Source of the DNA: Catajapyx aquilonaris
Lineage: Eukaryota
Direction of reading: 5' to 3'
Assembly: GCA_000934665.2 (NCBI GenBank)
Contig: JYFJ02002805.1
Span: 1-50,536, forward strand
DNA length: 50,536 nucleotides
Shown here: one piece after another, positions 2,401-49,245 of the stretch
Numbering within the stretch: the stretch's first letter is position 1
Layout: each line of letters starts with the position of its first letter
Made by a program: the position numbers and the translations under genes
Notes under the pieces: generated by a model
Seen by the model: the letters and a program-made list of their open reading frames with translations, nothing else
The model's database searches: none
Told to the model about the DNA's origin: nothing

Positions 2401-3102
2401 AGATGGTATTTTGTGTTTATTTGTGTTCATAACCATTCTTGGAGGAAGTGAGGCCTAAAAATTTCAGGTCATTTATTTCAAGGGGGTAATTGACATGCAA
2501 ATTAAGTGGAGGAAGACCATGATGCCCCTTACATTGTAGTCCCTGATGTTAACTGCTTCTTCGTCAAAAAAGTGCCGGATAAATTAATTCTAATGTGCTC
2601 GCGTGTTCCAGGCTGTGGCCATGCAGTGTATCTTAGCATGTTGAATAAACGACAGTCCGCACAGGCCTTTGTGTGGTAAAAGACAAAGACAGATGCCAGA
2701 CTTTCCTGCCTTCTTGCTTTGGCTCCTTCCCACATCCGGTCACTTTTTTGAGGTATCCTGATCGTATTAAATATCGATACTTCAAACTCAAAATTTGACA
2801 TAAAATAGTCACTCACGTCTGATGAAAGTATTTCACAGAAAAACTTTTTTTTAACAGCCACTATTGACAGCCCACTCTGTTGAAATGGTTGGAAAATTTA
2901 CACAGATGTGGAAATATTCGACGTCACATTGCAAATGTGGTAATAAAACATTTCCATATTAATATTTTGTACTATTTGCATGACCTCCTACCTGACTGAC
3001 AATGAGTACCTGGAAGTTACACAGACTTCCCACTTCCTGCCATAACATCGCAACCAACGGTTTTGAAAAGTGGTGAAATTTTGAGTAGCTCTCGTGGGAA
3101 AA

Positions 3103-4770
3103 ATGGCACCAAGAGCCAGTCAATACCAATATTATTTTTATGCATCAGCTGCAAGTACAGCATTCTTCATCTATAATGTGGCTCAAATTTTGCAACAAGA
3201 GACATCAGAAGTGCAACCCTCAGTGGCAGCCCAAACAGATGCAACAGTGGATCAGGTGACATTACAGTCTGCAGATTATCGGACATCACTCAATCAGGTG
3301 TTCTCCACACCTATGCCATCCGAGCATACATCACCGCCCCAGTTAATTACACCACAATCAACTTCACCCAGGTCACCTACTCTGAAATCTACATCAATGC
3401 AAGTACCTGTCCATCAGTGGTATTCAGGGAATCAAAGTACAGCTACAATGCATAGGATTCCAGCTTCATCTCAGCCAAGAATATCTCATGTGACCCCTGC
3501 ACTGACTAAAGATGAGTGTAACACAAGTGAAGCTCCAGCAGGTACAGTAACAGTGCATGGATGGGGTCGCCTGGGAAACCTCATGAGTCAGTATGCAAGC
3601 CTATGGGCCTTGGCCAAAAATGTATCGCTCCCAAGAGTAGCCCTTTTTCCAAAAATGAGGAAGAGACTGCTGCAAGTTTTCTCCAAGTTGTCCATAAATG
3701 AGACAAGACTGTGTCCAAAACAGTTACCATTAGTTAATATTGAAAATTTTTTCAATAATCAGAAGGGCAGTATCACCAAAGTAGAAAATCAGGGTGTCAT
3801 GCTGCACGGATATCCCGAAGAAGTTTACCTCTTTAACCAGTACCAAAATGACGTCAGAAAGGAATTTCAATTCAGGTATGGCTAGTCAAACATGTATTGT
3901 GCTTTGAGCCTTTTATTGGCAGAACTATTCAGTGCAGGCATGTAAATTATAGCAAAGCTTGCATTCCAACCCAGCTTCATGCTTCCAATCTAGTGCTAAT
4001 GCAGTGGCAATTGATCTGTGTTGGATATCACAACTGTTGTGTAAATATTAAAATACTGCACATCTACATAACACTGCAATTTACTGGTGCTTATACTGAT
4101 CTAGTTCCATTATCAACTAATCTCTTGCTATGCGTGACGTTTTAAAGCTGTTTTCGGATATAATAATTGCTTTGAATGAATTAATCAGTGATGTAAAAGT
4201 CACCACCAATTACATCATTCTCCAAGACATTGTTGCAGTGAACGTTTTGCAATCTTTCATGTATTTTACCCCATATAACTTCACAGATCTGACTTGGCCG
4301 ACCAGGCTCAGGCTGTGCTTCGCAATATCACTCATAATGGGACATTTGTTGGTGTCCACATTCGGCGAACAGACTACGCATACCACATCAAATGGCAGAG
4401 TAAAGGCAAGTTGATTGGCATAAGTTACTTCCATCGAGCCATGGAACTCATGCGACAAAAGCTTTTTGAACCTGTCTTTGTTGTCACTAGCGATGATGAG
4501 AAATGGGCAACAAAACACGTGGTCAATGAGTCAACAGCCACATACTGGGTTGGGCATAGTGGAAACAGTAACCTTGACTTTGCTATATTGTCAGCCTGCA
4601 ACCATTCCATTATTTCACTAGGAACATTTGGATTCTGGACAGCATATCTTGCAGGTGGAATTACAATTTTGCCAGATAATTTCTCTGAAAAGCCATACCC
4701 ACTGTATGAGAAGGTCAAACAGGCAAATATATCAAGGTGGATATTTCTCGATATCAGTAAATTAAAGTAA
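3103..4770 (+). CDS. Alpha-1,2-fucosyltransferase-like (GT11), copy 2; exons 3103-3875, 4287-4770
   Basis: N-terminal TM, long S/T/P/Q-rich stem, GRLGNLMSQYA, VGVHIRRTDY, TSDD and GTFGFWTAYLAGG. The intron interrupts EFQFR at the same position and phase as in copy 1. Confidence 0.9.
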
Positions 4771-22700: not shown

Positions 22701-25320
22701 CAGAAGATTCTCGACATGTTGTACTGCAACATGTTTTCTGTCACCTTTATGACTGAGATGGTACTGCCCCAGATGGTTGAGCGAGGAAAAGGACTAGTGG
22801 TCAACCTATCCTCACTTGGGGCAGTAATACCTTCGCCACTCCTCAGTGTATATGGCGCAACCAAAGTGAGGAAATGTTCATTTTGAAAGGTGTAATTTAA
22901 CATTGTGCATTCAATGAGCAAGGAAAGATCATTGAACTATTGTCATATTATCCCCATTACATTAATTGGGAGCTTATGAAAATTTGATAGTACCATATGT
23001 TGATGCAAAAGTGTATATTTTTTACACGTTATTGGCTTTCACAAGGAGAAATCTAATGCAAGCTGATATCTTTATTAGGCATATGTGGACAAGTTTAGCC
23101 GTGACCTGTACATTGAGTATGGACACAAAGGAGTGCACTTTCAAAGCATCATCCCAGCCTTTGTAGTGTCAAACATGAGCAAGGTGCGCAAGCCAAGCAT
23201 GATGATCCCTACTGCGGAAACATATGTCAAGAGTGCTGTCAAGTCTTTTGGGATGGATTACCAGACTGGCTCATACTTCATGCATCGATTTTATGTAAGT
23301 GTTGCAAGTCTTTCTTTTTCTTCATTGTCGTTATAAATAATTATTAAGTCGCTGTCACAATTACTTGTGCTCCATGTTTTCTAACAACTTTAAAAGCGAG
23401 TTAGGAATGCATTTAGAGGCTATGAAAGGCAGGGTTTGAATATTTGGGAACTCCATTACTCTCACAGTAGAATAACATGAAACAAAAAGTGAAGGGATCA
23501 TAAGCTTATGACATTTTCATGTACAGTAGTTTTATTCTTTACATGATGGTTTTCCTTTTTTAATGAGGGAATATTATGAAGTTCGCAACTTATGCATGCA
23601 TCTGCAGCCCACAGGCATGCACATATTGTAATTAATGTGGGATTTCCCTATAAAAGAGTAATCACTCAGCATAACAAGGTAGTGCCCCCAAATTGTAAGT
23701 AATGTAATTGTCACTTGCAATCCCCATTACTCTTTTATCCAACCTAATGCAGCATGCTGGCAGCTGACGAGTCAATATAAAGTGGGGTAATGTTCATGGA
23801 TTTTCTCCTGCCCTTGAAAATCATGAGATATTTTAACTTTAAGAAGTATTGAATGCCTGTGGTACAGGGCAAAATGAATCACAGATTGTAGGCTATATGA
23901 AGTGCAATGAAATCAAAGAATGATTCTTAAAATTACTCATAGTGGGAAGGTGGTTATATTTATATGCCATCATTAGCATAGTTTCTTGAACCCGGGTAAG
24001 ATGAATAATTTGCTAAGATAAAAGTTGCTGATAAGTTACACTTTGGGAATGTCTTCATGGTCATGAATACTTAGATCGAAATCATTAGGGACTATACCCA
24101 GTTCAAGGTTGTCCTTAGCACTAATTTTATTAACATGCATTGCATGCTTTTGTGCAGTTTTCCACATCAAAGTGACCACAGATGGTGTGAAGGTACAAAT
24201 GAAATTTATTCTGCTGGCATTTCCGTAGCTGTGGCTGTTGTGAAAGGAATTTGGAGGAATTACCAGTGGCATAATATATTGCTTGATTTTATCATTGTAT
24301 ATGACAATATTGTGGCGTAATTGGTTTATAAATAGAAAGAACCTTTGTTAAATAATTAAAATAATCATGTTGGCCTGCTGATGCTAGCCTATGCCCATGT
24401 TGAATGCACTGTCAATGCAACACCATATGTGCATCGCTAGTTGTATGTGGATATTACAAAGATAAGGCAGATTCTGTGCAAGAAGGTCAGGTAGGATTTT
24501 ATTTCGCCATGAAACTTATTTGGTTTTTTGGAGCTTCATGATTATTGCACGCTGCTGCCTGTGATTAGCTATTAGGTAATTTATAATGATGCACATCTCT
24601 CATGACTTGCATTTCTCATAAATAATATTGAGTAAGCTAGGTTTCAAGGTCATGCTGATGATGGCAGCAATCCAGTGTGCATAGTTGCATTAATAAATTG
24701 ACGTAGTGTTTGGCTGTATTGAATGCAGAAAATACTGCACTTTGACATGCTGAGCTGACCATCAAGGAATTTCCAGAAGTGCAGGATCCGTTGGAAAGTT
24801 TCAAGGTTCTTTTGTAGCATGCACAACAGGAAATGTAGATGCAAAGAAACCAGTTATTAATTTAACCAGGAAAATATCCATCCATGATTGAGTGCAGGCC
24901 TTGAAGCATTACTAATACATTTGGGATTTTGTAAGCACTTGTACTAGCATCTTTGTTTCAAATGTAGCTTTTAATTTTTAATCGTGAAATATTTAATGGA
25001 CAGATAGCAGTCACGGCAGACTTACTATGCATTGCACGACAGGAGGCAATGAAGCAAAAATTGTGACCTTTCCGGTACGTAGTTTAGAAATGGGAGGGCA
25101 AATACTCATTACATGACCTGGATTGTGACACGCCACTGACCTTAATGCTGAAAAGAAATTGTAGTGCATGTGACATTTACACTTGAAAATATTTCCTTTT
25201 CAGCTTCAAGTGGCCTTGTTCTTCGGATACTTCTTTCCATGGCTATCAAGGCGCAGTGCATACAATGGACTTAAGGAGCTGAGGAAAAAGGCATTGAAGA
25301 AGAGGGCAAAGCAACAATGA
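16797..25320 (+). CDS. HSD17B12: Very-long-chain 3-oxoacyl-CoA reductase (KAR/HSD17B12, spidey-like SDR); exons 16797-16989, 19697-19743, 19993-20068, 22528-22865, 23079-23294, 25204-25320
   Basis: N-terminal TM, GKWAVVTGATDGLGKA Rossmann motif, ILISRTPSKL, IGILINNVG, catalytic YGATK and basic C-terminus RKKALKKRAKQQ. Intron 20069-22527 is GC-AG. Confidence 0.92.
17581..17685 (-). mobile_element. tRNA-derived SINE family A, 3'-truncated copy
   Basis: The reverse strand reads A box TGGTCGAGTTGG and B box GGTTCGATCCC, then GGGAGTTCCCTTT..CAGGAGGGTCTCTG, homologous to the copies at 17739 and 36979. Confidence 0.8.
17739..17990 (+). mobile_element. tRNA-derived SINE family A copy
   Basis: A box TGGCTGAGTTGG and B box GGTTTGATCCC; the body is collinear with 36979-37240 (ggagttcccttt..cctgcgtca..tctggcaaccta..gactgcacatg..acattgcac). 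The 3' end is approximate. Confidence 0.82.
21524..21830 (-). mobile_element. Internally deleted Tc1/mariner-superfamily transposon relic
   Basis: The left end is TATAGGGTGTCCCA, with inverted match tctccatacatagggaat (21541) / attcccatatatggaga (21812). The minus strand encodes QCVEFCQWVQDHLDQDNFGDDIPFSDKANFGVNGEVSH, resembling the ...EFC.W...ILFSDEA.F..NG.VN first-Asp region of Tc1/mariner transposases. Confidence 0.65.
21991..22105. repeat. ~115-bp foldback (imperfect inverted repeat), MITE-like or hairpin RNA
   Basis: The left arm acatgtactatatcgttcaag...tttgcatttgatgcaagt pairs with the right arm acttgaatcaaatgcaaaa...ttgagcgatatagtacatgt around a ~9-nt loop. Confidence 0.85.
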
Positions 25321-25665
25321 CTTGTCTTCATAATATAAATTGTGTCAGAAGGAAGGTGTAATGAGCAAAACAGAGAAGTCTCTTGACATAGTCAAGTGTC
25401 TTCACTGTCACTAGCTCTAAAATGTGCAATGATATTCAGTTTAATAAGATAAGGAGGGTTAAAATATAGGTGGGAGTCTTTGCCAGCCCCAGCAATCACC
25501 GCAGCCTTTCAATTTGAAGGAAATTATAAATGGCAAAAGGACCACACTGTAAATAAAACACTGGCAGATCATTCCACAGAAAAACATCATTTTTTTGTCA
25601 TTTTGTCTTGATTCATAGTCTGTTTTCAGTGCACTTTTGGTGTCCCACATCAATCCCAAAGACTG

Positions 25666-28065
25666 TTACCGGTCAGCAAAATAGTCCAGCTTGTAATTAG
25701 CAGTGTCCTGCAGCGGCCGCTGTAGAGGATGGGGAAGGAGTTTGGCTATGCAATTGTGCAACTTGACTGCATTTCGACCCACATTGAACACATAGCTGTT
25801 GTCCTTCTCGCACAGGTTTCCCAGCACAGTGTAAATGTCCTGTCAAGGAGGAGGGGTCAGTGCTATTTATACACCTTCATACATAAAAATGAATAAACCC
25901 AATTTCAATTACCATGCAAAAGAGACTTCAAATATTTTGAATTTAGAAATTCCAGCTTAGGATAGATTACAGTAAAACTTTGATATAACGCCCCCTTTAT
26001 TCCGGTCCCTTTGATAATTTCCATTAGGTACATTTTCCTGGATATAACACTATCCCCGTTATAATGCTACTTTTTGGTGATCCCTTGGAGAGCGTTATAT
26101 CAAGGTTTTACTCTATTTACAGGTGAGTTCCTGCCATGTGTCCTACCCCATTAATTTGGGTGGATAAGCAGGCTCTTAAGATATGATAATAATTGTGTAA
26201 CATTTTTATACGTGCTGTACCTCACACAGGTTATTCTCAGCAGTAGCAGGCTCATGAATATAAAGAAGGTCCAGGAAGAAGTATGGTGAACTAATCAATT
26301 TCATGTAGCCCTCCTTACTGCTCTGGAACTCTGGCACACTGAATGATCGACCAAAGAGCAACACTGAAATAAAAGACCACATTGAGTAACTAGTTGCGAG
26401 TCCAGGCCAAAACAACATACATGTCCTGACTACATAAGGTGGCACAGTGGTCGACAACTCTGACCTCTGGGTCATGGGAAGAGGCACTTTCTGCTCGATT
26501 GTGTTGAACAAAGATGAAAGGTCCAGTTTTGAAGTAGGACCAAACTCAGTGTATTCACTGATGGCCTTCAGCAACTCCTGAGTGTCACTGGTGAATCCTG
26601 TCAACTATAAATAATTGTGTCTTGAATAGTAGCAGTAATAATAGTGTTTATTTAAATAGTTTGTTGCCCAGTTCATTCAAATACGCAGGGTGCTCATGAA
26701 TTCATCTGCCAAAATGATGTGGTGGAGCATTGCTGACCTTTCGGACCTAAGCCATGTTTCTTCCCTTGGCACTCCCTACTACTTGTATCATTTTGGCAAA
26801 TGAATTCATGAACACTCTGTATAATGGCTTGTTTTCAAATCTGACAGAGCTTAATGTAATTTTGTTACTGTAGTAATTGACAATCATGTAACTAATCAAT
26901 TCAAACCAGATGTGAACATCTGCAATTGTCTGCAACAAAATTTAAACAATTTGTCAACTGGAGTTCACTTGTGTATATGATGATAATCCTGTTCTTAGAA
27001 TGAGCCATAACATTCAGAAGCATTTGCAAAAACAAACATGTGGAATGTAGAGAACCAACTAACCCATGTTGCTGATTCTTTGAGAATCACAATAGCATAC
27101 TCATGCTTGGTGTTGAGGCACTGTTTGGAGAGGAGATACCTTTCAACCATACGTTTTAACATCTGGCTCACACTAAAGCCCCCTGTGGACATCTGGAAGG
27201 GAGTTACTTCAGCCTGCACATCGAAGTCCAAGCAGAGGATCTGGAAGAGCAAATAACATCATTAGAATTTTTTCCATACATTTGTTGTAGTGAATGGGGC
27301 TTCACACACCCTTTTCACAGGTCCCTTTGACAGAGGAAGGGCACTTTGCTACTCTCTCTCCCCCTCCCAATGGTAATTTTGAAGGCAGCATTATTGTGAA
27401 GTGACATACCACATGTAAGGAGCCACTTAGATTAGAATTAACCTGATTTTAGTTTAATCATCTTGGCATTTCATACCTGTTTCACCTGCACTCATATATC
27501 AAGTACAATTTCTATGAATCACTGTTTCTATCTACTTATCACTTACAATCTTCTCCTGACATCCAATGCGAGGAAGGGTTGGCGCCTTCTTAACTTCCCC
27601 TTGCTCTGAGTCAGTATCTTGTGACTCCTCCATGGGAACATCACTCTTTCCAGAATTCTGTGAACACTCTAGCACAGTCACTTCCTCATCTTCATTTTGC
27701 TCTGTAGGTGCCCCAGAAGATGTCATTACGTCTTTGGATAAGTGGCTACTGTCACCTTCCATTTGGGAAGTCTGGAAATGCATGGATAGGGAGTTAATAA
27801 AATGGGCAATATAACTGTAGGACCACTTAATTTCAGAAATTTCAGCCTGTTCTGATCTCAATATATGATATACCTTAGGAACGTTTGGTTTTCTTCCCTG
27901 GGCTGGAAAAATTTCTTCATCATCATCACTGGAGACAACCATGGCCACCTCAGGACTGGACTTCGGTTTGTTAGTGCAGCTCCTCTGTCGAGTGTTGTGT
28001 AATATGTCAGGACTTGGGGGCCTCTCCGCAGCTCTGCCAGAATGTTCATCAGAAGAATCATCCAT
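25666..28065 (-). CDS. BABAM1: BRISC and BRCA1-A complex member 1 (MERIT40/NBA1); exons 28065-27874, 27771-27547, 27240-27064, 26604-26421, 26363-26221, 25839-25666
   Basis: Acidic disordered N-terminus, then PRIGCQEKIILCLD, KHEYAIVIL, PPYVVRT, SPYFFLDLLYIH and LHNCIAKLLPHPLQRPLQ (vWA-like MERIT40 motifs). Confidence 0.92.
25970..26113. mobile_element. pogo/Tigger-like MITE in BABAM1 intron 5
   Basis: ~22-bp TIRs CAGTAAAACTTTGATATAACGC / GCGTTATATCAAGGTTTTACTC, flanked by TA on both sides (25968-25969, 26114-26115); no coding capacity. Confidence 0.8.
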
Positions 28066-29141
28066 AGTCTGGCAACTAGTACTACACAAAATGTGATTTT
28101 CTCAGGGCAAGTCCACCATTTACAAACCTGAAACAATTATCATCACTCTTTAGAACAGATTTTAACAAGATAAATGCAAGTACTGCAACTGACAAGCAGC
28201 TTTAATGTTTCGGCATATGCATACGGGGATCTGGGACCTCAATGATGTAAAGGTAATTGTCAAAAATGTTCCTTACAATACTGGTGCTGAGCATAAATAT
28301 TGAAGTTTTGAAATGGAACGGTATTTGAATAAGCATTTCCGATTCAATGTTGTCACATGCAAAAGTAGCATTTATTACATCTGAACGTAAGTGATCCTAA
28401 CTCAACTTTCACTCTCTCTAACCCAATCTCTTGAGCATAGTAACTAAACTTATGGCTACTTAATAAAATAGTACACCTATCTAAAAATAGCCCTGGCTAA
28501 CACATATCTTGCAAATTCAGGGACCAAACCTGGTATTGTGAATTGCTATTTGCATCAAGTGTGATGCATTTTTGTATGGCATCAACAGAAAAATGTGTCA
28601 CGCTTCTGGCTAGGCTATCTTTCCTTGAGCTAAGTACCCTGCAAGTATGTGCATGGTGAAATACTTTTCATCTGTGATCCACGCTTCAAAGCTCTTGACA
28701 CCTCCCCCAACACCCAGTCACTAGGGCCGCAGCCTTGTCACCATCAGGGATATAAGTCTCTGATCCATCTTGTGTCCCCAGGTTCACAAGCAACGACCGC
28801 TCCTGCCTTCTGACCAATTTTCTGCATACCTACGTGCCTGCCTTATCTCTCTCTGTAAAAAATTGTTTAGCACCAAAAAATTGCAATCACCTGAGCTGAC
28901 AAAGTTGCATTCCTACTCCTGCTTTCCGATTGCAAGAACCGACTACTACGTGTTGTCACGAATTATATATCAGTTAGTTTCTATCATAATTTTATAGCAC
29001 TTAACATTTCATATTGTTTTATAATTATGCTTGATTTGTATTACACGTATGGAATAAACAGCATTAAATGCAGTTTATGGCGCGGGTGCGAATGCGCTTT
29101 GCTCGTTCTGAGATGGCGATAGTCTTCGTTCGTTGGAAGCG

Positions 29142-30011: not shown

Positions 30012-30430
30012 GACAACAATGGGAGCATTGTTTCATTTCACTAGTTTTAATTTAAAATTTCAACACATATTGGTGTCCATATAAAGGGGAAAATATTGTT
30101 TTAGTGTTAGAACTATTGCTGTGGTGCCAGGATTGAATTGATTTGGCATACGGGTGTGTGTCATGACTGTTGAACTCTTCGTGAGTTTAAAAAATTATTA
30201 CACTCATTAGGATATTTTAACATTTGTGATGGCTACAGCATATTTCAGAAGAACACATACAGATCTTCCAAATGGAAAATATTGGAATGTTGGAAAATTT
30301 ATACTGTGCACCTGACTACATTATGTGAACTAAATGTGACCTGTGGTATCACATGACACAAATAATGTGATTGTGAATGTTGCCAGCTTGCAAAATTCAA
30401 GACCCAAGTGCCACTGTTAATACTGCAACA

Positions 30431-30826
30431 ATGGCTGTCCTTCACCGTGCTCTGTTCACTTGGTTCCTGCTTTTAGTGTTCCTGATTCTTTTGGTTCTCC
30501 GCCTGGATGAGCGGACCCAATGGAGTTGGTTTATTGTGTTTGTGCCTGTCTGGGTGTTTGATGGAGTGCTTCTTACTTACGTCCTGTTTAACATGATGAG
30601 CCACTGTCGCAATGGTCGTGACCGCCATTTTGTGTCTATGCAGCGGAAAGCCTGGTATGCCCTAGCTGCTGTGCTGAAGACAGCAGCTGAGATTCTACTA
30701 TGTTTTCGTCTGGAGCGAACTGACTGGCAACTACCTATGCACTACGTTATGGTGCCTGTGTGGACGCTTTTAACCGGTCTAGTAGTTGATGTGTTTGTCA
30801 CTCTACTGCAGCACTATCGCCACTAA
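30431..30826 (+). CDS. TMEM60: Transmembrane protein 60 (TMEM185/203/60 family), single coding exon
   Basis: HRALFTWFLLLVFLILLVLRLDERTQWSWFIVFVPVW signature, four hydrophobic helices and a good Kozak context (aca ATG G). Confidence 0.85.
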   Translation: MAVLHRALFTWFLLLVFLILLVLRLDERTQWSWFIVFVPVWVFDGVLLTYVLFNMMSHCRNGRDRHFVSMQRKAWYALAAVLKTAAEILLCFRLERTDWQLPMHYVMVPVWTLLTGLVVDVFVTLLQHYRH

Positions 30827-31218
30827 TATGTAATTTGAAGTGGCAGGAAATGAGAATGGGGTTTACATTATGTGCATTGATATGTAACAAGAAATTGTAA
30901 AGCAGCACAGGAAACCTCAAGTACTCACATAATGGAAATTAACACAATTAAAATATTTATGAAATTGTTGACAAAACACAAAATTTCAGGATTATCTACA
31001 AGGAATCATATATCAAGAATTTTCTGGTGTTTCATATAATATCATATTCCATGTTATTTGAATTACGAGATGCTTCCACTTAACCACGGGATGTTTTATT
31101 ATGATAAATTCAGATGATACTTTCGTCAGCAGCACATCCTACAATTCTGTTGTACTTATGGGTTGATGGGATTAATAAATATGTATCCAGATAATCTGTA
31201 CCATTATTTAATAATATG

Positions 31219-31728
31219 CTAAAGATTGAGTGTAAATTCTGAATCTTGCGTTGGAAGGCTGTTCAGAGATTCCAATGCAGTGCTCACAGGCACATCACTC
31301 AGGGTGAATTGAAACTCATCATACGTGTTCTCCTTATTGGAGAACGTCTTCTTGGGGCTTCTTTGTGGGCTTCGATGTGGACTCTTAAGTGGGCTTCTAC
31401 ATGGACTTTTTAATGGACTTAAGTGTGGACTCCTTAGGGGACTTTTGCATGGACTGTTTGGGGGGCTCTTGAGCCCACTTTTGTGGCTTTCCGTTTCCAG
31501 TAATTTAGGTTGGACTGAGGCCATTTCCAAATCACGTGACTTTTCACATTTGTTTTGACAGTTGTCCCCTAAAGTACGTGCTTTAATGGCAGTCTTCTCA
31601 ACAGTACACCTTGGCACAAAGAAGGACGTAATGGCATGCTGGTCTCGCCCTCTGATTAGAGGCAATGGTGGTAATTTTCCCAGGCGTGGTGCCTTCTTTT
31701 TACTGTTTTGAACCACTTGAGTTGGCAT
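31219..31728 (-). CDS. Uncharacterised ~169-aa protein with PIP box and tandem SPx(K/R) repeats
   Basis: Open frame preceded by a splice acceptor (tttgtttcag|ATG), with QHAITSFF at 31641-31618 and a 12-nt-unit array encoding SPPNSPCKSPLRSPHLSPLKSPCRSPLKSPHRSPQRSPKK. The true start may lie in an upstream exon. Confidence 0.7.
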   Translation of the reverse strand: MPTQVVQNSKKKAPRLGKLPPLPLIRGRDQHAITSFFVPRCTVEKTAIKARTLGDNCQNKCEKSRDLEMASVQPKLLETESHKSGLKSPPNSPCKSPLRSPHLSPLKSPCRSPLKSPHRSPQRSPKKTFSNKENTYDEFQFTLSDVPVSTALESLNSLPTQDSEFTLNL

Positions 31729-31896
31729 CTGAAACAAATTTATGATAAAATATCTACATATCAATAGCTTGCACACTACAGTGTAAGGGAAACTATACTT
31801 CAGAGTTCAGACACATCCTGTACACATCTGCTCAATAAGGAAAATATTTGTAGAATCTAAAAGACCCTGCTACAGCAAGGTTTTTCATGTTTGCAA

Positions 31897-32403
31897 TCAA
31901 TTTATCCCCCACACAGTCTCGACATAACAAGACGAGTTGTTTGTGTCCATACCTTTCGTTTCAGGCTTTTCGCCGACAGCCACTTTCGCTCCATCCCTGT
32001 CTGGAATGACTTGAACGAACAGTGAGCACGTGTCGCACCCAGTTATGCACTCCTCTTCTGCTTGATCTAAAGGCACCAAGTAAACTCCTCCACACCTGCA
32101 ACCATGCAGGTAGGCTCCTTCAGCCTCGGAATACTGCAACTCTGATAGCTTCAGGACTTCACTGATGTTCCAAGGCTGATGTAGGTCCTTCTGATCAAGC
32201 CTAGCGTCATACTCTGCACGTCGCACAGGATCACTCAACACCTCCCATGCCTCTTGCAGGAGATGGAAGCCATTGGTCCCCTGGCCTTTCTTGTCCGGGT
32301 GCAGCTGCAGCAAAAGTGACTTGTATTGTTGCTTTAAGTGTTGTGCAGTGCAATCACGATCAATGCAGAGTACTTGGTAATAGTCTGGTTCTTCAGGTGT
32401 CAT
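31897..32403 (-). CDS. DNAJC24: DnaJ homolog subfamily C member 24 (DPH4)
   Basis: J domain DYYQVL...LHPDK...AWEVLSDP..R..YD followed by the CSL zinc finger CRCGG...GCDTCS. Confidence 0.92.
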   Translation of the reverse strand: MTPEEPDYYQVLCIDRDCTAQHLKQQYKSLLLQLHPDKKGQGTNGFHLLQEAWEVLSDPVRRAEYDARLDQKDLHQPWNISEVLKLSELQYSEAEGAYLHGCRCGGVYLVPLDQAEEECITGCDTCSLFVQVIPDRDGAKVAVGEKPETKGMDTNNSSCYVETVWGIN

Positions 32404-33317
32404 CAACGTTACGCTGCAGGTTGCCTGTAAATATAAATTGTTATATGGCACATCATGACCTAGGATGAATGAAGTACCTTCACTGCACCAGCAGACGTCT
32501 GAGTACGGGCCCGGTACGGCCTTGTTAATGTGGCGGGAAGCGGGATGGAAACAACGGACCGACCTGCACCATGCCTGCACCTCGTCTGTATGAAAAAATA
32601 AAAGCACATTGCCGCAACTTGGCTAGTTCACAACATTAATTCACACCGCTAAAATGTTACATTTACTTAAAATTTTCACTACTCATTCGGTGTTCTTGAT
32701 CAAAACTTTAAAATATTTTCATGGAATTCGAAATGACTCATTTCAGTTGGCAACCTTGAGTCGGCCATGTTGTGGAACCACCACTTCTTGCAGCGCTCGG
32801 TAGATGGCTTCGGATCATTCCTCTGAGAAGGAAGTCAGCAGCGTTTTGTCCAGTTTCCTGGAGCAAAATCTAGCAAATTCTCCATTTATCTGCCGCTGGA
32901 ATAAGTGGGTAAGGTTTATGGTCTCATGCTTAATGCACTGGGACGTCCTCGGCAGCTTGGATAGTCAAAATGTTGCTGAGGGATTTCCTCATTGCGGAGG
33001 GCTTGTACAGATAATTTGACATATTCTCAGTCTTGCTGCAGCCAGTATGTTAGTGTGTAGTAAGTAAAAAAAGCTTTAAAACATGGTAAGGAACCGTTTA
33101 ATCATGCATCTGGCATTTGGGTGATGTTTTACATTGTTGTGATAATTGAACTGCACACGGTGCCAAACAAGGCATCGTTGTAGTTGATATGGTGTGTGTT
33201 CACTCGCTGAGCGCTCGCAGAGTTTTAAATGCACACATTCACCGACGAGCAATCTTTGAAACATGAATACTTTCAGGTAAGATTCCTGACGGATCTAATC
33301 CTTGTCTGGAGTGAGGA

Positions 33318-36300
33318 ATGATGCCAGGCAAGGGGAAGCAGAGTCCCAAAGGAAGAGGAAATGGAAAGCAGAATGGGAAAGGACAGTCCAGTGGAGGGCG
33401 GCATGGGAAGGATGCTGGAACTTCCTCTGGAAAGGGAGGAAGGGGTGGTGATGGTGGAGGAGCCACCTCTCCTGACTGCACCCTCAGTCTGCCTAACATC
33501 AAGGTTATTGATCACACCAAAGCACTGCCTAGATTTACTGCAGGTTTGTTGCATTTTAACTTAAGAGGTGATAAAGAATATTGTGAATATTGCCAATTAA
33601 GAATTTTTAAATGTTGATGTACGGAACTTATTGAAAATACCATAAGTAGCCTACTTGACGCTACACAGGTATGGGTGTCAATCTGATTTTTTTTTAACCT
33701 CTGACATTTTGTAAAAAAAATCTATGCCTGATACTCGACTCTCTTGCAAAGTTTGAGCAGAGTTCTTAGTATAGACACCAACACTGTAACGTGGCAAACC
33801 CCCTGCCACTACCATCACCACCATCCATGCCATTGGCTGGGAGTGAGGAGTGGGGGACTGACAAGTTAGATCACCAGCCCCTGCAGCTGTTTTCCTCAGA
33901 AGTGGTTTGACTACACTTGCTACCACTTCTTTCGAGTTAACAGGAGAAATGTATTGACATACGCGAAATAATGGCAAATTGGAACTTGTTTAGCATTGTA
34001 CTAATATCATTAGAATAACTTTGCTGATGCAATTAGTACATCCAATAAACGAGTTGCAAATATGCAGTTATTTTTCACATTCTTTTAATATCCTTTCAAT
34101 TTGCACTAAACAAGTACATAGGACATTCAAATTTACTTTCACAGTACTGCCAAGACATATTAATATGCAATACTTTGGCACTGTGGGCAGTGACTCATTA
34201 TAGTCTGTAATGCACATTTGGACAAGTTATTGCTAATAAAATTGCTATGAAGAACTGTGTGACTAAATATTTCAGGGCTGTACTTCCCTAGACTTATTTT
34301 TTTGACAAAATGCCAAAAGACTTTTCAAGCCTAAATGAATGCTTGTGCCTGTACTGTCATGCTCATATGAGATATTCATTACACCCTGTATACTTGATAT
34401 GTTATGCTGTTGCCTTATTATTTGACCAGTGTTAAGTCGCAATGAAGAGGAAGGCGTTGGAATGGAGGACTTGGACACCCTCCAAATGGAGCTAGAGACA
34501 CTACTGTCATCAGTGGCAGTAAGGATGAGGACATTGCAGGGAGAAGTGGACATTATAAACAGTGCTGAGGACAAGAAGTGGAGGACCAGCTTGAGTAAAC
34601 CTGTAAGTTTGTTTTGAGTCTGCATTACAGTATTGAATCTTCAAAATGACAAACACCTGCATTTGGCATGGGGTTGAACTGGTGGTGGCAGTATTGGAAT
34701 GAGTTAAGTCACACTGCCACACTGTCACAAAGGGTCTTAACCATGATGATATTTATTCCTCCAGCCTGGGTCTCCTGGGAAGCGTGGCAAGCACCATGAT
34801 GACCGCCCTACCAAAAAATTCAAGGACCATTCCGGAAAAGCCAAGGATGTTTCCTCTCCTGCCTTGAAGCCCCCAAAAGTAAAGCCTGTCACCCCAAAAG
34901 CTGAAGTAGATCCTGATCTCCCCCTACCAGATCTTCCACGACCCCCACCTCCAAAGAATGATGTTCCCAACAAATTCTGGGCATCAGTGGAGCCATTCTG
35001 TTCTGACATCACCCCTGATGACATCAAGGTGCTTGAAGAACTAGTGAAGACACACTTGGATGATGCGGAATACCAAAAGATACCCCCATTGGGTAAACAC
35101 TACACAGTCCGTTGGGCTCAGGAGGACCTCCTGGAAGAGCAGAAGGAGGGTACCAAGCTGTTCAAGAAAAAGGTTGGAGTCCAAAGCATGACTGAGGCTG
35201 AGCACATGCTTAGGAGGGTAGCCGAAAAAAATAGTGGATTTGGAGATGTAACTCAGCGACTGGTGTCAGCACTGATAGAGGAGGGAATAACAACAATGGA
35301 GGATGGAGGTGATGGTGATGGCAATGAGCGAAAGATTAAGATGAGTGTTGGTGCAGCAGCATCTTTGGAGCGGCGACTCAAGAAGGAGCTCCAGGAACAA
35401 GGGATTCTGGATGCAGCTGATGAGCCCACAATGGCACAGGATCAGGCCAATGACGAGATCTTACAGGAACTCAGACGCAGTCAGGTAGAAACAGTTTAGG
35501 AAGGTTACTTACGAAGGTTTACTGTAAGAAGCCAGTACTCTCTCTATATCGTCCTGAGACCCGAGAAGAATTTTTAACGCAATGTCAGTTCCTATTGCAG
35601 TTTCTGAACATTATCCCAATAAGAAACGAGAAAAAAAAAATTGTTTTAAAATATCAACAAAAATAAGTGACAAACAACCAATGAGAACATTAGGACCCAA
35701 TTGCTGCTACAAAAGCAGAACGGATGAAAGCTGAAAATTTAAATACCACCTAATGGATCACTAACATAGTGCTCTATCCTCAAAACAATGTTTTTTAAAT
35801 TCATTTGTGGAATTCGTGGTAGCAATTCCTCTCCGAAGACAAATAAAGATAAATGAAATTATTTTTGAACGCCACCACTCCAGGCATGGGGCTTGCTCCT
35901 TCCCTTCTTACCCGCTAGAGTGGTACCTTGCTATTCTAGATTTTAAAACTAAACTGTATAGTGCAAAGCACACTTCTTTATGGGTGTATAGGTACAGTGC
36001 TGGGCACATTAGCCGTCGCTGAATTTTTTTTCCCGTCGGCAACGGCACTACGTTACCTGGCAACCCCATCCGACGGGCCAATTCAAACATCTAGCCCAAG
36101 CATTTTAGTCTGATATGTGCCCAAACCCGGTAAAAAATAATGTAAATCTGAAAATCGCAGGAAATGTTCTGTTAAGTGTGCTGAACAACATACTAAAAGT
36201 CCCAAGAGCTCCTATGCCGGCATCATGTTTTTTTCGGCGCAAGAAGTACATAAGTCTCACTCGCTGTGGAATTGGCTATAAAAGCAAAACTACTCCTCCG

Positions 36301-37876
36301 AGGCAATCGCCCCGGCACCATTTTGGTCGCAAAAAGCATCTTCGCACCTAATTGGCCAGGCGGACTGCTCGGAGCTCTGGGCGTTGCCCACTTGTCACCT
36401 GAGCCAGCTTTTTTTGCACCTGGCAGATCCCATTACTTCCTTTTAAACCTTAAACTTGTAAAATTTTAAAAAATGGACACTAATGTTTCGATAATTCCTC
36501 AGAGAGACTGGGCAACCATATAGAATTAGCTTGGATTTCTGAGAGGGGTAGAAGCTGCCTTGAAAAATCCCAGTCTTGTGCATAGTTTATGAGGCGGTTG
36601 CTGGCCTCTCTCGATATTTGCAGTGTAGGTTAGTATGTCTCGCAATGTACAACCCCCTCTTGTGCATGAATCGAGAGCGAAACCAAGGGTGCCAGATCCA
36701 GTGATTTTCGCCTAGGCTCTCTTTTTAAACCACCACCCGAAGAGTTCAGAATCAGTCAGGAGACAAAGGGTTAATGTATTGTTAGATTTGCATTCAGGAA
36801 AGCATGCTATTTTTTCATGTGAAGAAGGGGTAATACTGGGTGGATCAGAGAGTGCCACAGCAATAAAATCCGTTGTTAAACTTGCAATCTGTGTATAATG
36901 GTGCATAAAAATATGGCTGTAATCACTTTAATTAGTGAAATACATAGTATACACCTATATATGGTATGGTGGAGGTGGGAAGGTGTGGTGGCCGAGGTGG
37001 TAACGTCTCGGCTTGCTGAATGAAAGGTCCCAGATTCGATCCCCGCCTGGGAGTTCCCTTTTTCCTGCGTCAGGAGGGCCTGTGACCCCCACCTTGGAGG
37101 TGTCTGGCAACCTAATCTCCTGGGGGACTGCACATGGCCCGACATCCGACATTGCACCTACAGAAGTGTCCCCTCCCCAACAATCCCTCTTCCTACCCCA
37201 CATCCCGAAGCCCTACACTGTGATTGAAGAAAAAAAAAAGAAATTTTTTTTCGAAATGGTGGTAATCCACCCCCCTACAGGGGTTATCACAGGGTAATAG
37301 AGAGAGAAAAATGGTATGGTAAGTATATGGTTCAGTCATAATAATTTGACACCTGGCTGACTTCTTAATCAGATGGGCCCCTTCTGAGCAGCTTGTGTTA
37401 TTTTGGGGAATTACATTGATCCAATATGTTAGTTGAGATATGTGGAAGAAATTTATCAAATTGAAATACTTGACTGAGTGTAAGTGTATACCTATTAATG
37501 CATACTGAGTACTGGAAATACTGTGACTAGATATTTTGTACCCAACTGCTTATATCGTGACACAAGTTTCCTCCTTGACAAACATTTTAATGGCATCTCT
37601 TAATTTCCTCACAATCAGGCAGAGCAGAAGGCCCTCTCACAGCACAACTTGCAGCAGCTTCAGAGGCTGTTGAAAATGGCCAAGGAGCAAATGGCCAGGC
37701 AGGAACTGAAGCAGAAGCTGAAAGCTGCTGATGCAGAGGTGATGGAGGCCTACAGGAGAATAGCTGCTGCCCACCAGAAAAAGAAGCCTCCTACAAAGAA
37801 GGAGAAGGAGCAGGCTTGGAAGGCCTTGCGGGACAGGGAGGCCATCTTGAAGCAGTTGGACAGCTCTTCAAACTAG
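33318..37876 (+). CDS. TADA3: Transcriptional adapter 3 (ADA3, SAGA/ATAC HAT module); exons 33318-33543, 34430-34602, 34765-35484, 37619-37876
   Basis: PRFTAVLSR..EGVGMEDLDTLQMELETLLSS, KNDVPNKFWASVEPFC, KIPPLGKHYTVRWAQEDLLEEQ, TQRLVSALIEE, DEILQELRRSQAE and KKKPPTKKEKEQAWKAL. Confidence 0.95.
36979..37240 (+). mobile_element. tRNA-derived SINE family A, near full length, in TADA3 intron 3
   Basis: A box TGGCCGAGGTGG, loop with TTGCTGA, B box GATTCGATCCC, body shared with the 17739 copy, and an A-rich 3' tail. Confidence 0.82.
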
Positions 37877-37977: not shown

Positions 37978-38752
37978 TTAATAGAGGAGAGCTGCTGTAA
38001 TAAAGCTGATCAAAAGGCAAAGGAACCCAGGAGTATGTTTGATCATGCCACTCATAGAGTAAGAGTAGTCCATTGTTATTTCTGGGGGTGCTTCCTTCTC
38101 GGATGTGATGTCTTCATGGGCTGATTCACCTTGCTCTTCAGATTCACTCTCTACTTGTTCTTCTGTTTCCTCTGATTCTTTCGTTTCGTCTGATTTTTTC
38201 GTTTCGTCTGATTTTTTCGTTTCTTCTGAATGTTTCATTTCTCCTGCCTCAGTTGAGACTGATACTGCAGATGTTGCAGTCTCTCCGCTTTCTACAGGTG
38301 GTGTTGCATCATCCTCTGGAGAAGGTACTTCTGTGGTATTTTGCATGACCTCGGCTAACGTCATGCCAGCAGTTGAATCTGTATCAGTCTCAGCTGAACC
38401 TCCTGTGGGATTAGTTGATGCTTCGGTGACATCCGAAGAATTTCCTGGTGCCTCAGCTGAAGATTCTGTGACCTCATCACTTGCCTATGAACAGGAAGTG
38501 GAATTATTACAAGCTCTCTTGAATATTGGTCTCATATCTTGTACTACTGCACATTGCATGAGTCTGTGAATTGAAACACTTCCTTTGATCATGCATGGGG
38601 AAGCCAAGCCAAGCCAAGCCAAGAAATCACCTGGAAGGAGCGTATCAGTTAACAGGCTAATGCAACTTGCAATAGGCATATTGTGAAAGGAAAGGCATTA
38701 CCTGAGAAATAAAGATGAGTGTGAAAATAAGCACAATTCTGAAGAGCTCCAT
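37978..38752 (-). CDS. Orphan secreted, acidic Ser/Thr/Glu-rich mucin-like protein with GPI-type tail; exons 38752-38702, 38484-37978
   Basis: Signal peptide MELFRIVLIFTLIFISQ|A joined by a phase-0 GT-AG intron to a low-complexity S/T/E body with ETKKSD repeats and a hydrophobic terminus PGFLCLLISFITAALLY*. Confidence 0.7.
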
Positions 38753-48945: not shown

Positions 48946-49245
48946 ACCGAAGCAGGTTGGCATAGTGGATAAGGCGTCCGACTGCTAATCGGGAGGTCCT
49001 GGGTTCGAATCCCGGGGCCGGCAACTCTGACCGTGGTTTTCTGTGGTTTCACACGGTCCTTCCAGGGAAATTCCGGAGTTGCTTCCGTAATTAATAGGCC
49101 ACAGCCGCTTCCTTCCGTCCCTATCCTATCCCAAAGAGCACAGTAAAGTGAAAGCGAAGAGTTCCAGGCAAAACAAACTTCCCCCCTAAAGAGCCGATGG
49201 CTGATAACGGGGTATGAATGATTTATTATTATTATTATTATTATT
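48946..49245 (+). mobile_element. tRNA-derived SINE family B, full length with TSD
   Basis: tRNA-like head at 48952-49023 (A box TGGCATAGTGG, B box GGTTCGAATCC), body GGTTTTCTGTGGTTTC...GGCCACAGCCGCTTCCTTCC, (TTA)n tail, and a 13-bp direct repeat ATGAACCACACTA at 48933-48945 and 49246-49258. Confidence 0.92.

Follow-up and report, generated by a model that had tools for sequence, protein, structure and literature searches.

An open reading frame carrying a canonical PIP box occupies the terminal exon of DNAJC24, in a second frame, in Catajapyx aquilonaris

What, if anything, does a 169-codon open reading frame (ORF) on the reverse strand of a Catajapyx aquilonaris contig (GenBank assembly GCA_000934665.2, contig JYFJ02002805.1, positions 31219-31728) encode? 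The window analysed here is the whole 50,536-nt stretch in which the ORF lies. A sequence-only reading had taken the ORF to encode an unannotated small protein, a disordered, cell-cycle-switched partner of PCNA that might be related to the vertebrate repair protein AUNIP. We found that the ORF fills the terminal exon of DNAJC24 (DPH4) in a frame other than that of DNAJC24, and that it is transcribed on the spliced DNAJC24 mRNA. We give an even chance to the interpretation that the ORF is a second, overlapping coding region of the DNAJC24 unit, which would specify a disordered, basic, nuclear protein that docks on PCNA and is switched with the cell cycle. Of the sequence-only reading, the PCNA-docking, cell-cycle-type disordered protein stands as the best interpretation of the sequence; the AUNIP link and a free-standing gene are not supported.

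The motifs on which that interpretation was built, KKKAPR, QHAITSFF, the array of Ser-Pro (SP) units and TQDSE, are all located in the ORF as they had been described, and a KEN box that had gone unmentioned can be added to them. QHAITSFF is a box of the type found in PCNA-interacting proteins (PIP box), and KEN is a candidate degron of APC/C, the anaphase-promoting complex/cyclosome. The features are as follows.

31219-31728, reverse strand: the 169-codon ORF, with its ATG at 31726-31728 and its TAG at 31219-31221.
31684-31701, reverse strand: basic stretch KKKAPR (aa 10-15), a possible nuclear localization signal (NLS) or DNA-contact element.
31618-31641, reverse strand: canonical PIP box QHAITSFF by motif match (aa 30-37), followed by VPR.
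31348-31467, reverse strand: ten tandem four-residue SP units (aa 88-127), whose coding sequence is a degenerate 12/24-nt repeat.
31327-31335, reverse strand: KEN box by motif match (aa 132-134), candidate APC/C degron.
31237-31251, reverse strand: TQDSE (aa 160-164), five residues from the C-terminus of the ORF.
31207-31212, reverse strand: ATTAAA, a putative variant poly(A) signal that begins 6 nt past the ORF stop.

The units of the array are, in order, SPPN, SPCK, SPLR, SPHL, SPLK, SPCR, SPLK, SPHR, SPQR and SPKK, and eight of the ten have Lys or Arg at +3 of the Ser. The sequence S-P-x-K/R is the full consensus of cyclin-dependent kinases (CDKs). At the nucleotide level the array is a degenerate repeat with a period of 12/24 nt and 69-77% matches between copies (Tandem Repeats Finder).

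Evidence for transcription comes from one public run, of a kind not on record and stored as contigs, which we treated as RNA because the introns that its contigs leave out have GT..AG ends on the strand of the gene concerned. One contig (depth 23.7) bridges 31953 to 31728; the 224 nt left out have CT..AC ends on the forward strand, and the shorter side of the joint is at least 255 nt long. A second joint of equal depth (23.7) bridges 32477 to 32423 and skips 53 nt (cut +1, side 94). Given the equal depth, and depth bins that are arithmetically consistent, both joints probably lie on one contig. Position 31728 is the A of the ORF ATG, and the acceptor reads tttgtttcag immediately followed by that ATG. 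Transcription of the ORF region, which the sequence-only reading had put forward as a check, is thereby seen on a spliced RNA contig. The same contig is the sole RNA evidence for the ORF, and it places the ORF inside the DNAJC24 mRNA in another frame; a free-standing gene is not supported. The parts of the transcript are listed here.

32478-32570 (5' limit approximate), reverse strand: exon 1 of the DNAJC24 5' untranslated region (UTR), without an ATG and with the E2F-core-like sequence TTCCCGC at 32533-32539.
32425-32477, reverse strand: 53-nt intron of the DNAJC24 5' UTR, a joint in the RNA contig.
31953-32424, reverse strand: DNAJC24 exon 2, with the ATG at 32401-32403 and the J domain and CSL zinc ribbon entirely within the exon.
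31992-31994, reverse strand: upstream ATG in the strong context GGGATGG, in frame with the ORF after splicing, which would give a 183-codon version with a 71-nt overlap with the DNAJC24 tail.
31729-31952, reverse strand: 224-nt GT..AG intron removed in the RNA contig, with its acceptor AG immediately 5' of the ORF ATG.
31700-31702, reverse strand: DNAJC24 stop codon TAA, nine codons into the terminal exon and in a frame other than that of the ORF.

The identity of the host gene, which had been named correctly from the sequence, follows from Pfam matches to DnaJ (E 2.1e-18) and Zn_ribbon_CSL (E 3.9e-13) and from its best match in the PDB, human DNAJC24 (2L6L, E 6.5e-21, query residues 5-133). 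Its reading frame crosses the junction between exon 2 and the terminal exon in phase 1 and yields a product of 159 residues, and with respect to it the frame of the ORF is +1. The terminal exon consists of the ORF from its first base to 6 nt before ATTAAA. The joint between 31953 and 31728 puts both ORFs on one mature transcript, as in a bicistronic or dual-coding mRNA, in which the downstream ORF would also be translated. The frame of the ORF is already open for 30 codons within exon 2 of the spliced mRNA, and the 183-codon version would add 14 residues, MERKWLSAKSLKRK, which are basic. The last basic pair of this extension is separated from KKK in the ORF by ten residues, the spacing of a classical bipartite NLS, and these elements may act as one. 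Contig coverage was not seen at about 31192-31235, which is evidence neither way. A metagenome scan with DNAJC24 gave 387 matched stretches and 253 confirmed matches, and no syntenic orthologue was found among the best 80 of the latter; the matches covered query residues 1-101, essentially the J domain (only L052 reaches residue 101), at 34-47% identity, and none of these loci entered the later analysis.

The 169-codon frame is statistically non-random and is unlikely to be a chance product. When the 544-nt terminal exon was shuffled 20,000 times with its dinucleotides preserved, an ATG-initiated ORF of at least 169 codons arose twice, the median being 43 codons; the real exon is nearly all ORF. 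The strict pattern Q-x-x-[ILM]-x-x-F-F has a single match, the ORF's own site, among the 101,068 residues of the six-frame translation of the window, and a relaxed PIP pattern has 11 matches there. Within the array, the Ser and Pro codons are invariant at positions 1 and 2 in all ten units (10/10 each) and vary at their third positions (T in six and C in four of the Ser codons; A in seven and C in three of the Pro codons). This third-position-only variation fits selection on the peptide, the duplicated units not being independent of one another. A codon log-likelihood trained on 16 exons that were Pfam-supported or long gave 0.057 for the combined N- and C-terminal parts outside the repeat, a value that ranks among the highest 8.5% for 223 stop-free stretches taken from outside the frames used in training; the stretches that scored higher are mostly real-exon-like. 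This codon test is compatible with coding and is not decisive. Because of the shuffles, the near-complete filling of the exon, the unique PIP box, the third-position-only variation and the codon score of the non-repeat parts, taken together, we regard a chance frame as unlikely.

If the ORF is translated, its product would have a mass of 18.8 kDa, a pI of 9.8 and a grand average of hydropathy (GRAVY) of -0.8, with Ser, Pro and Thr making up 54 of the 169 residues. Single-sequence AlphaFold2 returned a mean predicted local distance difference test score (pLDDT) of 49.6 and a single 8-residue helix at aa 148-155, and around the PIP box pLDDT stays below 60 and secondary structure is absent. By its composition and this model the predicted protein looks disordered and basic, as had been proposed. 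QHAITSFF conforms to the motif class of PIP-box clients of PCNA (Q-x-x-[ILM]-x-x-[FY]-[FY] in an accessible disordered segment). A PIP degron, read by CRL4-Cdt2, has T-D as residues 5-6 of the PIP box and, at +4 after the box, a basic residue; this candidate role was rejected, as the ORF has T-S at positions 5-6 and V-P-R-C after the FF, so that the basic residue is at +3 and Cys is at +4. The judgement that the PIP box is canonical is borne out by its fit to the consensus and by a comparison with ZRANB3, since QHAITSFFVP agrees in 8 of its 10 positions with QHDIRSFFVP, the PIP peptide of ZRANB3, for which Table 2 of PMC7225939 gives binding to PCNA with a dissociation constant of 4.8 uM.

Translation, PCNA binding, DNA contact, phosphorylation and degradation of the ORF product are all predicted from sequence. 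The N-terminal PIP box would dock in the hydrophobic pocket of PCNA, and the basic S-P-x-K/R array may contact DNA while unphosphorylated. Phosphorylation by CDK at up to eight full-consensus sites would then neutralise the contact between the array and DNA, and the KEN box would direct destruction by APC/C outside S/G2. TQDSE is a potential ATM/ATR site or partner-binding site. By analogy, the operating logic of the putative protein would be the same as that of PAF15 (PCLAF), and this is the most economical mechanism that we can propose. Two of the six matches to the E2F core TTSSCGC in the window fall within 83 nt of each other at the DNAJC24 promoter (32533-32615); the pair is a possible cell-cycle promoter signal, and only a hint of one.

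There are three routes by which the second frame might be read. One possibility is that exon 2 is skipped and exon 1 is joined to 31728, in which case the ORF ATG would be the first ATG in the mRNA, since exon 1 has none, and it would have A at -3. Alternatively, ribosomes may scan past the DNAJC24 start, whose context is weak (T at -3), and then reinitiate. A third possibility is an internal transcription start. The 159 codons of DNAJC24 hold no in-frame internal Met. Between the DNAJC24 and ORF starts there are five ATGs in 448 nt, compared with a mean of 11.7 (range 7.9-19.9) per 448 nt in 15 other coding stretches. ORFs of 5-19 codons begin at four of these five ATGs, and the fifth, in the context GGGATGG, is in frame with the ORF.

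Several observations weigh against the interpretation of the ORF as a second coding region for a PCNA-docking protein. The five ATGs stand ahead of the ORF on the DNAJC24 mRNA, and a scanning ribosome normally would not reach the ORF; moreover, their depletion is weak when set against the 7.6 expected from base composition. Neither a joint that skips exon 2 nor a separate transcript of the ORF was seen among the joints listed, in contigs that drop rare forms. The codon score of the whole ORF, -0.034, is not distinctive, and that of the SP array is -0.29. The proposed function depends wholly on short linear motifs, of a kind that low-complexity sequence can produce by chance, and a single-sequence AlphaFold2 model is by itself uninformative on disorder. 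TTSSCGC is not enriched in the window (6 observed, 6.3 expected). Finally, no homologue of the non-repeat parts of the ORF was found in any search, which leaves the ORF without conservation support.

The searches behind this last point covered several collections. Against 1.84 billion representative proteins, phmmer returned 27 matches at E ≤ 1e-3, and 26 of these have their best stretch inside aa 52-149, at the SP array or in its surroundings; the remaining match (P0027, aa 5-41) is a repeat protein, and the six of the 27 sequences that were inspected are all low-complexity. A word-indexed search of proteins of similar length with the whole protein gave one match among 53 candidates, a low-complexity SP-repeat protein. 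With residues 1-84, the same length class yielded no candidate, and none of 37 candidates among longer proteins matched at E ≤ 10. When the whole protein was compared with 24,736 Pfam-A models by hmmscan, only TALPID3 appeared (E 0.029, below its cut-off), and no family matched the N-terminal (1-84) or C-terminal (125-169) part. Residues 1-84 had no phmmer match in the PDB, and neither Rfam nor ARAGORN gave a match within the ORF or close to it. An exact-sequence look-up did not find the ORF protein in its collection, and a control from the neighbourhood, the TMEM185-like ORF described below, was also not in the collection.

The alternative that survives best, although we consider it unlikely, is that the stretch is the 3' UTR of DNAJC24, in which the degenerate 12-nt repeat keeps one frame open, the motifs are coincidental and no protein is made. 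The only transcript seen is indeed the DNAJC24 mRNA, which has its own stop nine codons into the exon, and the repeat accounts for about 40 of the 169 open codons. The failure of the searches to find a homologue and the ordinary codon score of the whole ORF also agree with a 3' UTR. What this alternative does not readily accommodate is an ORF that runs from the first base of the exon to 6 nt before ATTAAA and reaches a length seen in 2 of 20,000 shuffles. Nor does it explain why a strict PIP box that is unique in the window occurs alongside a KEN box, eight full CDK sites and a basic N-terminus, why the Ser and Pro codons vary at third positions only, or why the N- and C-terminal parts outside the repeat have codon scores within the range of coding sequence.

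A second alternative is that the ORF protein is a highly diverged, non-vertebrate orthologue of AUNIP, in which the basic N-terminus and Q..I.SFF would serve at damaged forks and the TQDSE-type motif would serve for CtIP. The sequence-only reading had suggested such a relationship, as an unverified link, on the ground that vertebrate AUNIP combines Q..I.SFF with a C-terminal TQDSE. The top neighbour of the ORF protein in the ESM-atlas is in fact an AUNIP cluster (PF15334 on 81% of its 72 members), with a score of 0.78 and 148 of 256 features shared, and 4 of the 10 best family-bearing matches agree on the AUNIP family or clan. According to the atlas guide, a score below 0.9 with at most 5 of 10 agreeing matches is a lead that is probably wrong; the recognition value was 1443, and 91% of proteins of known families reach 2300. 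The lead vanished when residues 1-84 were used alone, with which no usable match was obtained. The PF15334 (AUNIP, AIB) profile had no match at E ≤ 10 in the whole protein, residues 1-84 or residues 125-169, and AUNIP is not among the 27 phmmer matches. What is left of the proposed link is a weak lead in feature space. A literature search did not find AUNIP paired with a PIP box, and binding of PCNA by AUNIP or C1orf135 is not claimed in titles or abstracts among the matches listed. The ORF protein is also less than half as long as the representative of the atlas cluster. Lou et al. (2017, PMC5645412) report AUNIP orthologues exclusively in vertebrates and describe a protein with both termini conserved, in which residues 21-24 form an NLS, residues 25-70 serve for recruitment and DNA binding, and the last 77 residues bind CtIP, a layout of elements to which that of the ORF protein is similar. 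Taking these points together, we find an orthologue of AUNIP distinctly improbable. The fuller proposal that DNAJC24/DPH4 has a dual-coding mRNA whose second frame specifies a PCNA-docking, CDK-switched, APC/C-degraded counterpart of AUNIP outside the vertebrates has, in our view, a slimmer prospect yet.

It is also conceivable that the ORF is translated into a young, lineage-specific orphan protein whose PIP-like, KEN and SP motifs are not used in the way proposed here, for example a generic basic nuclear or chromatin protein. The lack of detectable relatives and the growth of the ORF through its repeat would suit such an origin, and so would the absence from the PIP box of an acidic residue at position 6, a feature tied to high affinity in PMC7225939. 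Set against this are the PIP box itself, which is fully canonical and near-identical to the validated one of ZRANB3, and the presence of four motifs of cell-cycle or replication type within 169 residues, which is hard to obtain by chance; we hold this origin to be quite doubtful. That the frame serves solely to extend DNAJC24 at its C-terminus, by a +1 frameshift in the 71-nt overlap or from an alternative donor, to give a J-domain/CSL protein with a PCNA-docking tail, draws on the 30 open codons in exon 2 that overlap the DNAJC24 tail but is hardly credible, as the donor in use ties for the best score among the GTs of exon 2, no phase-0 donor there is above 6 of 9 consensus positions, and the RNA contig has a single junction; a frameshift signal was not seen, no search having been aimed at one.

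The surroundings of the DNAJC24 unit are of interest in their own right. The locus appears to belong to a compact genome of a non-vertebrate animal, with introns of 53-61 nt and with the J and CSL domains of DNAJC24 in one exon. Convergent with DNAJC24 is a TMEM185-like ORF of 149 aa (30377-30826, forward strand) that matches positions 1-105 of the 252-position Tmemb_185A profile and lies on an unspliced RNA contig (30204-31191) running past its stop; it represents either a paralogue that has been truncated or a form with a retained intron. The poly(A) signals of the two convergent transcripts, AATAAA at about 31173-31178 on the forward strand and ATTAAA at 31207-31212 on the reverse strand, are about 30 nt apart, and the 3' ends of the TMEM185-like and DNAJC24 transcripts must therefore abut or overlap. 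On the other side, an Ada3/TADA3 gene is divergent from DNAJC24, and the bidirectional promoter of about 250 nt between them has two TTSSCGC matches. A 2134-nt intron of Ada3 holds stacked RNA contigs with many mismatches (35700-35964, 36341-36407, 37072-37089), with depth up to 133 at 36816-37349, and these look like an expressed repeat or transposable element. At 37978-38484 on the reverse strand there is an acidic ORF of 168 residues that is rich in Ser, Thr and Glu, has SDETKK-type repeats and lacks a Pfam match. The RNA contig over this ORF bears Ada3 exons as well, and the acidic ORF may be a gene in its own right, of antisense or 3'-end type.

Elsewhere in the window, two tandem genes of glycosyltransferase family 11 (alpha-1,2-fucosyltransferase type) occupy 641-1684 and 3085-4770 on the forward strand, with second exons that match at E 6e-32 and 6e-33. 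A multi-exon gene at 25204-28125 on the reverse strand has six GT..AG joints in RNA at depth 85; its two longest exons have no Pfam match, and one exon is rich in Ser, Asp and Glu. Genes further out were recognised through Pfam by a glucan-branching-enzyme C-terminal domain and as RNA-cyclase-like, 2-oxoacid-dehydrogenase acyltransferase and short-chain dehydrogenase genes. A tRNA-Ser(GCT) gene or tRNA-derived element lies at 48952-49023 on the forward strand (Rfam, 39.7 bits; also ARAGORN).

The consequences depend on whether the second frame is translated. If it is, the ORF would encode a new small disordered PCNA regulator of PAF15 type from outside the vertebrates, and one animal mRNA would give rise, from overlapping frames, to two unrelated proteins, a J-protein of the diphthamide pathway and a replication or repair factor. 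Were a relation to AUNIP to hold, a poorly understood repair factor would be dated to before the vertebrates, and docking on PCNA would be indicated as the way in which it is recruited; were the ORF product the AUNIP counterpart of the fuller proposal, AUNIP-type proteins would predate vertebrates and would be PCNA clients by virtue of the N-terminal Q..I.SFF box. If the frame is not translated, the terminal exon is an ordinary 3' UTR with a repeat, and the case counsels caution in inferring function from short linear motifs.

How does the putative protein compare with known systems? In the layout of its motifs it would work like PAF15 or AUNIP, and profile searches for membership in either family gave no match, the PAF-family profile being among the 24,736 Pfam-A models with which the ORF protein was compared. 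[quoted passage not shown] Like PAF15, the predicted ORF protein is small and basic and looks disordered, with a canonical PIP box placed N-terminally or centrally and a KEN box, and the combination that marks a PAF15-type protein, canonical PIP and KEN boxes in a small disordered protein, is present in its 169 aa at aa 30-37 and aa 132-134. The two differ in that the KEN box of PAF15 is adjacent to its PIP box, whereas that of the ORF is about 95 residues past it. Unlike PAF15, the ORF also has a ten-unit SPxK/R array and an alternative-frame location in the terminal exon of another gene, and no sequence similarity between the two was detected. The likeness to ZRANB3 (PDB 5MLO) is at the level of the PIP motif only, since ZRANB3 is a large translocase/endonuclease and nothing else aligns.

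The SPKK repeats of sperm histones H1 and H2B bind DNA in the minor groove and are switched off by CDK-type phosphorylation. The units of the ORF differ from these in being S-P-x-K/R, with a third residue that is non-basic in nine of the ten, and they stand outside a histone fold or context. AUNIP (AIBp, C1orf135; PF15334), as PMC5645412 describes it, resembles the ORF protein in the order of its elements, with a basic N-terminus or NLS, an N-terminal recruitment motif and a far C-terminal end that is conserved in AUNIP, although the representative of its atlas cluster has 389 aa and the ORF protein 169 aa. A literature search did not find DNAJC24 paired with the term bicistronic, and DNAJC24 or DPH4 together with the term dicistronic was absent among the matches listed. 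A parallel for the arrangement of the frames is offered by dual-coding or bicistronic animal mRNAs with overlapping frames, such as MOCS2A/B. As in MOCS2A/B, two ORFs in different frames share one mature mRNA, and the second starts 5' of the stop of the first, an arrangement that is known here from an RNA contig and the genomic sequence.

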